Virus record (IMG/VR): IMGVR_UViG_3300037462_000386
Span: 1-54,445 of that record
Source of the DNA: a virus
Taxonomy: Duplodnaviria > Caudoviricetes
Length of the DNA: 54,445 nt
Strand: one strand, 5' to 3'
Shown here: positions 33,606 to 37,649 of the stretch, piece by piece
Layout of the letters: every line of letters begins with the position of its first letter
Position numbering within the stretch: position 1 is the stretch's first letter
Position numbers and translations under genes: made by a program
Notes under the pieces: model-generated
What the model saw: only the letters and a program-made list of their open reading frames with translations
Database searches by the model: none
Told to the model about the DNA's origin: nothing

Positions 33606-36600
33606 ATGGTCATGCCTGACACTACCGCTCCACCAAAGCCAACCACCCGCGAAATTGCCTCGATCGTCGGTTACGGTCGGGACATTACCCGATCGTACCT
33701 GGGCAAGCTGCTTGACCCACAGGACAAGGTCTTGCGGCGCTGGTGGTACGACTACGAGGTTTACGAAGATTTACTGCGGGATGACCAAGTTAAGGCGACG
33801 TTTCAGCAGCGGCGCAGTGCGGTCATCAGTCGTGAGTGGGAGGTTAAAGCCGGGGGCGAGAAGAAGCTCGATAAGGACGCTGCCGACTTTATCCGCAAAA
33901 CCCTAGAAGAAATCCGGTGGGACAATATCGCCGACAAAATGCTGTTCGGGGTCTACTACGGCTATGGCATCGGTGAGTGCATCTGGGTGGTGCGCGACAA
34001 TCAAATCCACCTCGACACAATCAAAGTGCGGAAGCAGCGGCGCTTTAAGTTTGACTGGGAGATGAAACCCCGGCTGCTGACCTGGCAAGCCTATACCGAT
34101 GGCGAAGCGCTGCCAGATCGGAAGTTTTGGCATTATTCCACGGGTGCGGACAACGACGATGAACCCTATGGTCTGGGTTTAGCGCACTGGCTGTACTGGC
34201 CTGTGTACTTCAAGAAGAACGGCATTAAGTCCTGGTTGAAATTCTTGGAGCGGTTTGCTCAGCCGACGGTCAAGGGAGCCTATGGGCCGGAGGCGGGGGA
34301 CAAGGAGCGGCAGGCGTTGAAGTCGGCGCTCCAGGCTTTTGGGGAAGATGCGGCGGTGATGGTGCCGGAGGGAGTGGAAATCGACCTGATTGAAGCTGCC
34401 CGATCGGGCCAGGCGGACTATGGAGGCCTGTGCGATCGGATGGATGCCGCGATCGCCAAGATTGTCTTGTCCCAGACGATGACCACGGACAACGGTAGCT
34501 CGCGTTCCCAGGCCGAAGTTCACAGTGGGGTGAAGCTGGAAGTCATCAAGTCGGACGCTGATTTGATTGATGCGTCGGCGAATGCAACCTGGGTGAAGTG
34601 GCTGGTGGATTGGAACTTCCCCGGTGCGGCTTACCCCAGTATCAGCCGTGTGTTGGATGACGCGGAGAACTTGAATGAACGCGCCGATCGGGATAAGACG
34701 CTCTCTGATTTGGGTTTCAGGCTTACGCCGGAGAAGGTGGAAGAAATCTACGGCGACGGCTATTATGACCCGGCGCAAATTAAGGAAGAATCCGGTGAGA
34801 AGCCACCGCTGGTCAGTGTCCTGGGTGTCGGTGGTACGGAAGCATTGGTCAACTTCCTCCAACAATTGAGCCAGATGGCTTTGACGCGGGAGAATGCCAT
34901 TTCAACCCTGGTTACTGTATTTGGCATTAGCCGGGTTGATGCTGAGGCAATGGTGCCAGAGGATGCGCAGTTGGAGGGGGCGGCCCCGATCGAGCCAGTC
35001 GCTAGCCTTGACCAAGCGGCGGCTTTGTTCAGTGATTCAGTTGAGTTTGGCGCAATCATCGATCGGGTGATTGATTGGAATGGCCTGAAGCTGGGGGTGG
35101 AATATCTGCCTGGGCAGGTGCGATTCCCTGGTCGCAAGAACAGTAAGAAGCTGCGATCTGGCTATGGCCATATCCGCAATTACAAAGGGGCGGATGGTGA
35201 GGCCCTGGACTGTTACTTAGCCCCCGCGTTCTTTGGTGAGGCTGAACCCAGTCAGTTGATTTTTGAGGTGACGCAACTGGCGGATGATGGCGACTTTGAT
35301 GAGCATAAGTTCATGCTGGGCTATGGCTCGATCGAGGATGCTGAAGCGGCCTACCAAAGGGAGATGCCAGCGGAGTTCTTTGGCGGGATTCGGGCCGTCG
35401 ATCGGGATGAGCTGGAGCAATACAGCAAGGATGTTCAATTTGCGGAGTCGCAACGGTTATTTGCTGTGCTGCAAGTTTTAGACCAATCAGTTGAGGTGGA
35501 TATGCTGACGTTTGCAGAAACTCAGTCGAATGCGGCAATGGAGGCCGCGATCGGGCGGCGATTCTTGGCCTTATTGCAGCCTGGAGCGGTGGATTTTGCC
35601 AGTGGTGGCGGGAAGAAATGCACCACGGGGCTGAGCTGTGGCAGCAGTTGTATCAGTAAGGCGAAGGTGTGTGTTAAGACGCTGTCGCCGGAGCAGCAGG
35701 CTCAATACAAGGCGTTGGTCAAAAAGGTCAAGGCTGGAGATACGTCGGCTCAGGCGGAGATTGACGGAATCCGGAAGCAACAACAGGGGGGAGAGTCCAA
35801 CCCGGAGCAATCTCCCCTGTCGCCAAATCAATTTATTGCCCCCTCAAAAAACGTAGAACGCTCTTATAAAATCCCCGCAACGGGCAGGTCAGAGGTAAGT
35901 GCCCAGGATGTCGCGATCCCGTTTGGCCCAAATGCGTTGCGTGAGATGGCAGGTCGGCGAGTGCTGTGGAGCACGAGTGTCTCTCTGTTGGACGACATTC
36001 CAGCAGAAGAATTAAGTGGAGCGATCGGGGCAATAATTGATTCGGATCCTCAGGCGAGGACGGGCAAAGGCGAAACACTTGTCGCGGTCCATAAAGGATT
36101 CGATCCTAAAATGGCGGCGAAATTTAGATCGCTGGGGGCTGAACCAATAGACGATGCTGGGACGTACGTGGCACTGCGTTGGGATGGCGAAGATCTGAAA
36201 CCTATTACTGCTGCTGACAAGACAGAGATCGCTGCGGCCCAAGATAGGTGGAATCGGCACAGGGAAGCGTTCCGCGACGTTGAATCAATGTCTGTTGATG
36301 TGAGTATTGCCAGTATTGTTTACAAGGGCAATAAAAATAAAATGTTGGCGCTGATTGAAGAGCCGCTGAAAGCTCATCGGGAAGCCACCAAAAAACTATG
36401 GGCGGCGGAAGACAAAGATTTAAGCCGATCTCCCACAAAACAAAGCCGCAAAAAATTAGAAAAAGCACTACAAGCCGAGGCTCAGGATTGGGCGAAATCG
36501 ATGGGCTTTACGGGGGAGGGCGTGAATGGATTCTCCGCCGATGCGACGAAAGCCCACGACATTGCCCACCCAGCGACTCACCGCCTTGCCGGGATGAATT

Positions 36601-36959
36601 CCCAGCAAATCAATCGCGCATTCGGTGATCTGAAGGATGCCAATGGCAAGCCCTCACTATTGGCGGAAGAGGCACTTGTCAACGCGGTTGAGCATTTGAG
36701 CCGAGGCGATACCAAAGAAGCCTCAATCCAGAATGGCCTACGTCTCGCCAAGGTCCTTTCTCGGAATGCGACGGAGGCGGAACGGCAGTACGTACGATCG
36801 GAGGAGTTTGCTCGTGGGCTGATCGATGTGATTGAAAACCGCATCTACAAAAACAATGAATATAGCAACTTGATGCCGATCGTGCGGGATTACAATGTGA
36901 TTTCTGGCACCGTCACCACGTCGGGGGCAGACTTCACCAATTCAGCATCGGGAGGCTAA
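33606..36959 (+). CDS. Mu gp29-like portal (DUF935) fused to PPase-like, Cys-rich and unknown C-terminal domains
   Basis: PYGLGLAHWLYWPVYFKK..FLERF..IAKIVLSQTMTT..QAEVH; YGHIRNYKGADGEALDCY..FDEHKFMLG; KKCTTGLSCGSSCI. Confidence 0.88.
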   Translation: MVMPDTTAPPKPTTREIASIVGYGRDITRSYLGKLLDPQDKVLRRWWYDYEVYEDLLRDDQVKATFQQRRSAVISREWEVKAGGEKKLDKDAADFIRKTLEEIRWDNIADKMLFGVYYGYGIGECIWVVRDNQIHLDTIKVRKQRRFKFDWEMKPRLLTWQAYTDGEALPDRKFWHYSTGADNDDEPYGLGLAHWLYWPVYFKKNGIKSWLKFLERFAQPTVKGAYGPEAGDKERQALKSALQAFGEDAAVMVPEGVEIDLIEAARSGQADYGGLCDRMDAAIAKIVLSQTMTTDNGSSRSQAEVHSGVKLEVIKSDADLIDASANATWVKWLVDWNFPGAAYPSISRVLDDAENLNERADRDKTLSDLGFRLTPEKVEEIYGDGYYDPAQIKEESGEKPPLVSVLGVGGTEALVNFLQQLSQMALTRENAISTLVTVFGISRVDAEAMVPEDAQLEGAAPIEPVASLDQAAALFSDSVEFGAIIDRVIDWNGLKLGVEYLPGQVRFPGRKNSKKLRSGYGHIRNYKGADGEALDCYLAPAFFGEAEPSQLIFEVTQLADDGDFDEHKFMLGYGSIEDAEAAYQREMPAEFFGGIRAVDRDELEQYSKDVQFAESQRLFAVLQVLDQSVEVDMLTFAETQSNAAMEAAIGRRFLALLQPGAVDFASGGGKKCTTGLSCGSSCISKAKVCVKTLSPEQQAQYKALVKKVKAGDTSAQAEIDGIRKQQQGGESNPEQSPLSPNQFIAPSKNVERSYKIPATGRSEVSAQDVAIPFGPNALREMAGRRVLWSTSVSLLDDIPAEELSGAIGAIIDSDPQARTGKGETLVAVHKGFDPKMAAKFRSLGAEPIDDAGTYVALRWDGEDLKPITAADKTEIAAAQDRWNRHREAFRDVESMSVDVSIASIVYKGNKNKMLALIEEPLKAHREATKKLWAAEDKDLSRSPTKQSRKKLEKALQAEAQDWAKSMGFTGEGVNGFSADATKAHDIAHPATHRLAGMNSQQINRAFGDLKDANGKPSLLAEEALVNAVEHLSRGDTKEASIQNGLRLAKVLSRNATEAERQYVRSEEFARGLIDVIENRIYKNNEYSNLMPIVRDYNVISGTVTTSGADFTNSASGG

Positions 36960-36962
36960 TGT

Positions 36963-37175
36963 GTGGATAACAAGTTTGTGCAAGGCGTGATCGAAGAAGC
37001 ATTGGCAGACAAACTGCCAACCAATCAATTCCAACGGTTTTTGATGGATTGCTTAACGTCGGGGATTACTTACAAGCGTGGCAATGCGCCGGATTTAGTC
37101 GCAATCCTGAATGACGCCGATCAACTGCAATCGATCGTTGATCTGTATAAGGGGAAATTTGAAGCGGAGAAATAA
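36963..37175 (+). CDS. small protein, candidate immunity protein for the portal C-terminal domain
   Basis: GGAGG RBS; directly follows the variable-looking domain. Confidence 0.5.
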   Translation: MDNKFVQGVIEEALADKLPTNQFQRFLMDCLTSGITYKRGNAPDLVAILNDADQLQSIVDLYKGKFEAEK

Positions 37176-37649
37176 ATGCCTACCACGATCGAGTCTACCG
37201 AATACCCGACTCTGCTCAATATCATCAATGGGACATACCGGGATGAGGTTGAGCAGATTTTGTCGGCCCAGCTCCAGGATGACGACAGCACTGTCGCGAT
37301 CGGGCTGGATGGGAAAAAGCAGGTAGCAGCGCTAATCACCGAAAACAGAATCAAGGTTCGCCTGCTTAATCCTGATGACATCGAGGGGGGCGCGGCGGAT
37401 TTTGCCGAAGGTGACGAAGCCGACACAGCCGACCAATACCGTGAGCAACTCCGCACCCAAGCGGGACCATTGATTGATGAGTGGGTCGGCAAAGTGAAAG
37501 CGCTACTGGACGAATCCGGCGACCTAGCATCCTTCTCGGAACGGCTGCTAGACCTATACCCCGACCTGGATGGGCAGCGGCTCAGGCGGATTATGTCCGA
37601 TGCAATGACCGCTGCCAGTATCGCTGGGTCACAGGAGAGTGCGAGTTGA
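37176..37649 (+). CDS. protein carrying the usual C-terminal segment of Mu-like portals
   Basis: DFAE..LASFSERLLDLYPDLD..MSDAMTAASIAG. Confidence 0.6.
   Translation: MPTTIESTEYPTLLNIINGTYRDEVEQILSAQLQDDDSTVAIGLDGKKQVAALITENRIKVRLLNPDDIEGGAADFAEGDEADTADQYREQLRTQAGPLIDEWVGKVKALLDESGDLASFSERLLDLYPDLDGQRLRRIMSDAMTAASIAGSQESAS

Follow-up and report, generated by a model that had tools for sequence, protein, structure and literature searches.

A Mu-type phage portal gene with fused cargo domains, an apparently exchangeable distal cassette, and a separate gene for the portal tail helices

Effector-carrying phage portals were described in 2017 as fusions of the portal to InPase (BcepF1 gp124), PBECR, and 2H domains, which were proposed to be injected (Iyer et al. 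2017, PMC5512222), and fusions to Nudix domains and ADP-ribosyltransferases (ARTs) were added later (Iyer et al. 2022, PMC9503650). A second described system is that of the MuF-borne polymorphic toxins with immunity genes, which are established in temperate phages; the portals mentioned in the accessible text of that report merely adjoin MuF genes (Jamet et al. 2017, PMC5576092). For phage Mu, the last 124 residues of the portal protein gp29 (gpH) are absent from the virion model, which the authors ascribe to protease I (PMC11915804). The prohead protease of phage SPN3US cuts ejection proteins and the portal after AXE, and T4 strips targeting peptides from Alt and its internal proteins (PMC7411985). 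In the present study, we examined three plus-strand open reading frames (ORFs) at positions 33606–37649 of a 54,445-nucleotide (nt) virus record (IMGVR_UViG_3300037462_000386). This whole stretch is called the window, and its coordinates are used throughout, as they were in an initial annotation made from the sequence letters. In this locus a Mu-type portal core continues into a series of cargo domains (ORF1) and is followed by a small ORF (ORF2) and a separate gene containing portal tail helices (ORF3). We consider it somewhat better than an even bet that the portal gene is used here as the carrier of a modular cargo string in a temperate phage with a Mu-type head, whose close relatives reside in cyanobacterial metagenome-assembled genomes (MAGs).

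The locus is similar to the known portal–effector fusions in that the portal is followed by InPase or another enzyme in one polypeptide, and the solved portal 9b41_L also has InPase at its end. It differs from them in three respects: the cargo lies ahead of the portal tail, which is now a separate gene; the distal cargo varies from one close relative to the next, along with a small ORF that changes with it; and the four-cysteine leader of this cargo is also present on free-standing cargo genes. With the MuF toxins it shares a head-internal carrier encoded in the packaging module, tips that vary, and small genes further downstream, whereas the carrier here is the portal, the MuF gene (37708–38958) is separate and has a weak GNAT-like end, and the tip is no recognised toxin. 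Mu gp29 belongs to the same Pfam family, and the boundary of its missing residues is the place where the window cargo begins; gp29, however, is free of cargo, and its tail is still part of the one polypeptide. The likeness to T4 and SPN3US is that of cargo targeted by a removable peptide, cut after x-x-Glu, kept in the head, and ejected, but their targeting peptides are short N-terminal ones on free proteins (PMC7411985), whereas the window has a portal fusion with a putative protease family and a putative F-A-E site. Portals that carry effectors are hence known; what appears to be new is the cassette at the junction, the placement of the tail in its own gene, the cysteine leader common to several genes, and the HDxAHP domain. 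A literature search, with subscription papers outside its reach, gave no portal with its tail as a separate conserved gene, no portal-borne polymorphic cassette with a partner gene at a maturation junction, no shared cysteine leader, no HDxAHP domain, and no cleavage motif for Mu-type proteases.

The features of the locus were as follows, with lengths in amino acids (aa).
33606..36959, plus strand: ORF1, portal–cargo fusion of 1117 aa (ORF list, Pfam, PHROGs, alignment)
33753..34754, plus strand: Portal_Mu core, ORF1 residues 50–383 (Pfam; PDB portal matches 8rka and 9khx)
34758..35045, plus strand: linker and small helical mini-domain, ORF1 residues 385–480, kept across the clade (alignment)
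35046..35426, plus strand: InPase (type I pyrophosphatase-like), ORF1 residues 481–607 (Pfam PF18823)
35427..35750, plus strand: conserved leader, ORF1 residues 608–715 (alignment, blastn)
35751..36386, plus strand: variable tip middle, ORF1 residues 716–927, with an alpha/beta domain at about 772–866 (AlphaFold2 model)
36387..36956, plus strand: HDxAHP domain, ORF1 residues 928–1117, all-helical in the model (HMMER family, alignment, model)
36963..37175, plus strand: ORF2, 70 aa, GTG start, helical-looking, without a family (ORF list, Pfam, PHROGs)
37176..37649, plus strand: ORF3, 157 aa, with an N-domain (1–70), DFAE (75–78), and portal tail helices (85–156)

The portal core of ORF1 was assigned with Portal_Mu (PF06074, formerly DUF935), which matched residues 50–383 at E 9.6e-103 with 344.5 bits against a curated cut-off of 23.9, and with the PDB portals 8rka (E 6.9e-18) and 9khx (E 6.1e-15). 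In PHROGs, ORF1 8–445 matched positions 28–446 of the portal profile phrog_113. The core spans what is resolved of Mu gp29 in virions, and ORF1 6–401 aligned at 48% identity with residues 2–398 of the Lsp-JY19 portal, an unsplit 560-aa protein of a Leptolyngbya phage. It lies in a head module, since terminase, MuF, protease/scaffold, and major head protein are all encoded in the window. Homologues of ORF1 in relatives begin at its third codon (33612). After residue 383, ORF1 continues into InPase, a four-cysteine motif, and a 389-aa end region. InPase PF18823 matched residues 481–607 (nt 35046–35426) at E 1.8e-25 with 89.8 bits against a cut-off of 26.8, and this domain also matched residues 638–730 of the solved 765-aa portal 9b41_L (E 2.5e-11). 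The initial annotation had described ORF1 as a portal polyprotein carrying cargo domains, which is borne out by these two families, both above their Pfam cut-offs; the portal core, PPase-like domain, cysteine motif, and AHDIAHP motif were all found by Pfam or in the translation where it had placed them. InPase is an optional module, which 2 of the 6 close portals in the alignment have, as does one locus outside that alignment (L003). The InPase of polyvalent proteins is stated to have four conserved acidic metal-binding residues (PMC5512222), and acidic clusters were seen by eye in the ORF1 translation at about 530–535 and 560–567. No peptidase family (MPTase) was detected in ORF1 by Pfam, PHROGs, or NCBIfam; such a processing peptidase is described as common, not obligatory, among polyvalent proteins (PMC5512222). 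ORF1 is composed of the portal, InPase, an alpha/beta domain, and the HDxAHP domain, of which only InPase is a listed polyvalent-protein domain. It joins at least two effector-type domains to a virion-packaging domain, by which it belongs among the polyvalent proteins.

The distal part of ORF1 proved to be the part that changes between relatives. A search with residues 640–1117 gave seven proteins including ORF1 itself, all of which are portal fusions of 841–1117 aa. Six of them (ORF1, P0002, and P0004–P0007) were aligned, omitting P0003 with its different portal part. These portals are 56–68% identical overall, and invariant columns extend up to A715 with none beyond, so that a conserved carrier with divergent tips, as in polymorphic toxins, is found, together with a break in the DNA at 35738. 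When the window was compared by blastn with the cyanobacterial MAG locus L004, positions 33645–34967 matched at 75% and 35460–35678 at 82%, no likeness was found over 35738–37175, and the match resumed exactly at 37176, the start of ORF3. Because of this gap, the tip and ORF2 are bracketed by conserved DNA, namely the cysteine leader upstream and ORF3 downstream. This comparison supports the idea that the region after residue 715 and the small ORF act as an exchangeable cassette between conserved flanks. Portal C-termini and the small ORFs behind them, which the initial annotation had proposed to compare across relatives, both differ between close relatives, and the extension is not invariant. 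The tip middle (716–927) is common only to P0002, P0008, P0009, and, weakly, P0003. A likeness of this middle domain to the tips of P0004 and P0007, noticed by eye, was discarded when phmmer reported no domain. No relative turned up when metagenomes were scanned with the portal alignment, and a viral-contig scan with the portal gave only ordinary portals, which are 43–48% identical.

The last domain of the tip behaved differently from the middle. Its HDxAHP motif lies at ORF1 984–989 (nt 36555–36572), and a HMMER scan of 1.84 billion representatives with ORF1 729–1117 found 49 representative clusters at E ≤ 0.001, 42 of them at ≤ 1e-30. Nearly all matches cover only the last ~190 residues, always at the protein C-terminus, with 42–65% identity among 41 matches having E up to 1e-30. 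Pfam assigned Portal_Mu to 3, InPase to 1, kinase to 2, and a weak DUF to 1 of 44 such proteins, and nothing to the other 37. Residues R941, G967, N974, H984, D985, H988, P989, E1021, and E1022 are invariant in the alignment, and so are V1025, N1026, E1029, G1034, R1064, and F1068, giving the family pattern R, G, N, H-D-x-x-H-P, E-E-x-x-V-N-x-x-E, G, R, F. HDxxHP is present in 46 of 47 representatives, and one of two variants of the cysteine motif lies upstream in 29 of the 47. An AlphaFold2 model of the tip, built with the family alignment (pLDDT 91.1, pTM 0.91), consists of an alpha/beta domain at ORF1 ~772–866 and an all-helical domain at ~868–1100. Even with E allowed up to 10, the tip had no Pfam match, and NCBIfam gave nothing for ORF1–3. 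In structural comparison by VIA-align, GNAT acetyltransferases made up about 14 of 50 rows over model residues 37–136, in the alpha/beta part (Z 3.0–4.1). The best score in the ESM Atlas, 0.83, was below the lead threshold, and this result, in which 13% of one cluster contained LPD23, was set aside. Because of the invariant His/Asp/Glu pattern, our best guess is that the HDxAHP domain is a metal-dependent enzyme. A terminal GG was also observed in 31 of 47 HDxAHP proteins, within a D-F-x-x-x-A-S-G-G-like tail (window nt 36945–36956; the end motif of the window tip is DFTNSASGG), for which a docking, cleavage, or conjugation signal was considered.

ORF2 was compared with the small ORFs that follow other tips. 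Pfam at E up to 10 and NCBIfam gave no family for ORF2, and its only detectable homologue is the 80-aa protein P0064 (54% identity, E 1.3e-16). P0064 is encoded on a 3339-base contig, equal in size to that of P0003, which has the same tip on a quite different portal backbone (Portal_Mu only E 1.3e-8). P0064 hence appears to lie beside the same HDxAHP tip on a different backbone, a link made through equal contig size and not through contig DNA. Two further homologous pairs were found behind other portals. The 79-aa ORF of L004, which follows the P0004 tip, resembles the 126-aa ORF of L003 (E 2e-11), which follows a tip that is, by eye, like that of P0007; the P0004 and P0007 tips were themselves judged kin by eye. 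The 64-aa ORF of L021, following a HDxAHP portal fusion, resembles a 66-aa ORF of Nodularia phages (E 6e-20). With these pairs and P0064, the small ORF is seen to change with the type of tip, in accordance with the initial annotation. In the Nodularia phages (L022 6001–6369 / L001), a truncated HDxAHP remnant comprising the last ~120 residues with the GG end lies right after a 470-aa portal and is annotated as a 73-aa hypothetical protein; it is followed by the intact small ORF and then by a separate TUDOR-InPase ‘minor head protein’.

These observations also bear on an alternative in which the tip is a toxin aimed at bacteria, either competitors or superinfected cells, which it would reach with the virion or upon lysis, and in which ORF2, as the cognate immunity protein, protects the lysogen or producer. 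We hold this to be unlikely. It would account for the conserved N-terminal carrier, the variation of tips among close relatives, and the adjoining small ORF that changes with the tip; the truncated Nodularia tip with its intact small ORF resembles the orphan cassettes of polymorphic toxin loci; and the MuF-borne toxins with their immunity genes offer a precedent. In addition, the tip of one relative, P0006, gave two weak, co-located matches to the ART fold (SpvB, E 0.13; XopAI, E 1.7e-4, 20.8 bits against a cut-off of 300). The window tip, however, matches no toxin family or fold, the HDxAHP domain with its 49 clusters is widespread and conserved rather than hypervariable, and other tips on the same leader, such as the J-domain, look host-manipulating, not killing. 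The initial annotation had read the locus as a portal carrying injected effectors with an inserted toxin/immunity-like cassette. Of this, the carrier fusion, the exchangeable cassette, and the co-varying small ORF held up, whereas the window tip is neither a known toxin nor hypervariable.

The missing end of the portal was located in ORF3. Residues 23–152 of ORF3 matched positions 415–512 of phrog_113 (E 2.1e-8), and phrog_10231 is shared out between two proteins, with its near half (1–129) matching ORF1 252–380 and its far half (177–253) matching ORF3 78–154. ORF3 72–156 is 36% identical to residues 469–555 of the Lsp-JY19 portal (E 1e-11), and generally the last 85 residues of ORF3 match the C-terminal tail of unsplit Mu-type portals. 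With a two-sequence ORF3 profile, E < 0.01 was reached by 8 of the 17 unsplit Mu-type portals that made up the database, in each case over the last ~85 residues. No portal was found among PDB sequences by phmmer with ORF3, and Pfam gave nothing in ORF2 or ORF3 at cut-off, with only sub-threshold matches for ORF3 (E 0.05–0.13) when E up to 10 was allowed. The structure model of ORF3 was poor (mean pLDDT 43.9). Core and tail are thus not in one polypeptide here, which is a departure in gene structure and not in the core fold. Free-standing ORF3 proteins of 153–159 aa form 8 clusters, including that of the window, in a collection of 5.8 billion proteins (48–67% identity), and two of these clusters sit on contigs equal in size to those of P0004 and P0006. 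ORF3 homologues are also separate genes at two cyanobacterial MAG loci, at 11646–12107 in L004 and in L003, whose contig ends just inside one. The order in L004 is portal with tip (8001–10667), 79-aa ORF, opposite-strand Uma2 gene, ORF3 homologue, and MuF. Because this Uma2-family endonuclease gene (10912–11583, minus strand; Pfam E 1.2e-26) separates the ORF3 homologue from the small ORF, the gap ahead of ORF3 tolerates insertions.

ORF3 is more than a portal tail. Its residues 1–70 form a separate small domain, which also heads free-standing cargo proteins; the ORF3-family profile detected it at the head of the free-standing HDxAHP proteins P0043 (E 2e-17), P0010 (2e-13), and P0020 (1e-4), and inside the L021 fusion. 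The tail helices occur inside the portal fusion P0024 (520–603, E 2e-8), where they precede the cargo, and the free-standing P0042 begins with them (E 1e-13). The window arrangement is hence one among several permutations of these parts, and this points to general module shuffling. The separate ORF with the normal portal tail, as initially annotated, was therefore recovered as far as the tail helices are concerned, but it contains a distinct N-domain in addition, and a one-off insertion that split the tail does not fit, because the tail helices and the N-domain occur in other orders with the same cargo.

ORF1, ORF2, and ORF3 lie in one common frame and are parted by single TAA stops (36957–36959 and 37173–37175). 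This frame, and the portal ORF of the relative L003 that is broken inside the cysteine motif, would suit a misassembly, a portal pseudogene with two nonsense mutations, or a read-through protein across the two stops. Such an artefact or decay is very improbable in our view. L004 keeps the gene order with its small ORF in a different frame and the opposite-strand Uma2 gene before ORF3, and ORF3 is a separate 153–159-aa protein in 7 other clusters. Shine-Dalgarno-like purine runs lie 6–7 nt ahead of the starts of both ORF2 (GGGAGG, 36950–36955) and ORF3 (GGAG, 37166–37169), and no tRNA gene, hence no suppressor, was found in the window. Read-through or an alternative code was accordingly rejected, as the frame is not kept in relatives, one of which has an opposite-strand gene in between, and the window has no tRNA. 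A Logan contig from one wetland metagenome run, which may be the source sample, covered 35400–37800 with 0 differences at a depth of 19.7. This second assembly spans the junction, so that the misassembly which the initial annotation had named as a danger to its proposal is excluded as an assembler artefact by an identical contig from a sample that is not independent. No RNA dataset containing the stretch was listed. The break in L003 (764–3777), where the portal–cargo ORF resumes in another frame (2944–3777), is a frameshift or an assembly error.

Returning to the portal as a cargo carrier, we examined the leader and the junctions between the modules. The leader (608–715) consists of two short segments between FAE (612–614 and 636–638) and FAS (664–666), the cysteine motif CxxGxxCGxxCIx5C (672–689, nt 35619–35672), and a basic helix, and it contains the stretch of DNA most conserved with L004 (the 82% match). 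A free-standing 440-aa gene of L004 (2106–3428) starts inside the leader, has the same cysteine motif, and ends in DnaJ (Pfam E 8.6e-7, above cut-off). Neighbouring genes of the metagenome contig L025 have another leader variant in common and end in HDxAHP or in a weak GNAT domain (E 0.0022, below the Pfam cut-off). Since the leader heads free-standing genes at both loci, it is portable and not tied to the portal. The L025 region 69–6975 comprises four consecutive genes with variants of the leader and cysteine motif and differing ends, with a ParB-like stretch seen by eye, and looks like an array of free-standing cargo genes.

Similar tripeptides recur in the head proteins encoded behind the portal region.
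37708..38958, plus strand: MuF-type minor head protein, MuF domain residues 62–179 (Pfam, PHROGs)
39623..40729, plus strand: head maturation protease/scaffold (phrog_976, E 3e-92), with four FAE (82, 92, 292, 317)
41099..42100: major head protein, with tail genes after it

The DFAE of ORF3 (75–78, nt 37398–37409) is invariant in its family, FAS lies at 252 between the two domains of MuF, FAE or FAS lies at 612, 636, and 664 in ORF1, and the motif EFGA (ORF1 480–483, nt 35043–35054) closes the linker and mini-domain just ahead of InPase. FAE occurs 7 times in the 2058 aa of ORF1, ORF3, MuF, and the protease, and 7 times in the 13425 aa of 44 other genes; composition-preserving shuffles gave a mean of 0.71, and 0 of 5000 reached 7, a statistic that is inflated because FAE was picked after inspecting the sequences. 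In 13 of 17 unsplit portals, a FAE-like motif lies at the core/tail boundary, where the ORF3 alignment begins. The order in Lsp-JY19 is core, linker, helical mini-domain, AEFAA, and tail, and that in ORF1 is core, linker, mini-domain, VEFGA, and InPase; the likeness of the two mini-domains was seen by eye only and was not significant by blastp. The protease at 39623–40729 is presumed to be the processing enzyme of the head proteins, and FAE is, by analogy, a likely site of the prohead protease. The C-terminal ~170-aa domain of MuF, which is preceded by the FAS (252–254), has a weak GNAT likeness only (Pfam E 0.04), and a similar end domain is present on the leader-bearing L025 gene 5818–6975 (GNAT E 0.002).

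The same junctions invite an explanation by assembly alone, in which the extension and ORF3 form a portal-tethered scaffold or core that nucleates or sizes the procapsid and is degraded and expelled before packaging. In its favour, Mu virions lack the portal tail, FAE is also dense in the protease/scaffold, and the conserved, terminal HDxAHP domain has an end motif (GG in 31 of 47) that could be a docking signal. An InPase enzyme domain and swappable enzyme-like or J-domain tips are nevertheless hard to explain as scaffold, and replacement of the tip by unrelated sequence, with the flanking genes kept, is unexpected for a size-determining core. We regard this explanation as improbable.

According to the cargo-carrier reading, the following course of events is proposed. 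ORF1 passes into InPase, leader, and tip at the very point where unsplit portals pass from core to tail, and as portal C-termini point into the capsid, each procapsid would receive twelve copies of the cargo string. The prohead protease (39623–40729) would then cut at the recurring hydrophobic-F-A-E junctions; the last 124 residues of Mu gp29 are likewise missing from virions, and the cuts made in ejection proteins by T4-like proteases fall after x-x-E. Cutting would free InPase, leader, and tip as separate internal proteins, and the freed cargo would exit together with the DNA and take effect soon after entry into a new host. ORF2 may be a dedicated partner of HDxAHP, acting as an inhibitor or chaperone in the producing cell, and ORF3 may supply the assembly-phase function of the portal tail in trans.

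Several points weigh against this course of events, of which the post hoc choice of FAE and the contig-size link between P0064 and P0003 were given above. For cleavage, packaging, and ejection alike, the proposal is drawn from anatomy and analogy, and FAE is absent from Mu gp29. The ORF3 profile reached only E 0.1 on the Mu gp29 tail, which is not significant; because it misses gp29, ORF3 is linked to the part missing from Mu virions only via intermediate portals. No ORF3-like gene is present at L021, where a portal fusion bears the same tip, so not every lineage needs its portal tail as a separate gene. ORF2 and the small ORFs of L021 and Nodularia are not significantly similar (first of 601 segments, yet E 1.6; blastp E 0.5), and for P0002, the closest tip relative, no ORF2 homologue was found in a word-indexed search scoring only 2 candidates. 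Foldseek of the tip model against PDB and BFVD gave nothing at E ≤ 0.001, and the best Z of 4.1 in VIA-align against 48,161 chains is below the level that the tool calls meaningful. Finally, the HDxAHP domain is well conserved and always terminal, and could be a structural or targeting element instead of an effector.

A broader version of the proposal would make the locus part of a general, hitherto undescribed cargo-loading system of Mu-type heads. There, F-A-E, read by the prohead protease, and the four-cysteine leader would mark interchangeable modules, either portal-tethered or free-standing, to be delivered by way of the capsid, among them HDxAHP, ART-like, J-domain, GNAT-like, kinase, and InPase modules; the tail helices and the ORF3 N-domain would dock, and HDxAHP would be a new metal-dependent enzyme fold held in check by the small partner. 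We put this forward tentatively, as a possibility that is rather doubtful in its full extent.

The rest of the window was consistent with a temperate phage. It contains a weak integrase match (25851–27017, minus strand), O-like and DnaB-like replication genes, and small and large terminase genes (28245–30147), with the portal region placed in the head module by Pfam and PHROGs. No transposase family was matched among 41 window ORFs scanned; because of this result, together with the integrase and the O-/DnaB-type replication genes, the phage appears to be an integrating and not a transposing one. The two closest loci in the genome collection, with portals 79% identical, are from cyanobacterial MAGs. 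Three additional genes lie between terminase and the Portal_Mu gene. One of them (31068–32771) encodes a 567-aa protein with C39-like peptidase and N-acetylmuramidase domains of endolysin type, an unusual location of a lysis gene for a Mu-type head module, and another (32816–33559) encodes a 247-aa FHA-domain protein with a hydrophobic C-terminal stretch. A gpG-like protein is present in the head module after the portal region. In the tail region, a 1666-aa ORF (44724–49724) without a PHROG match at E 1e-5 may, by its position, be the tape measure protein.

How tailed phages select the proteins that are carried in the head and enter the host with the DNA has been worked out in detail in just a few model phages. 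The present locus is a compact system for this question, with a fixed-copy carrier, a candidate cleavage motif, a portable leader, and naturally swapped tips. A paucity of polyvalent proteins in cyanobacteria was remarked upon by Iyer et al. (PMC5512222), and the locus adds an example of such proteins from relatives of cyanobacterial prophages. If the motif and the leader work as proposed, the processing of Mu-type portals would be explained, a new set of early-acting phage effectors, including a conserved domain that had not been annotated, would be at hand, and a means of loading chosen proteins into phage heads in laboratory systems would be provided.

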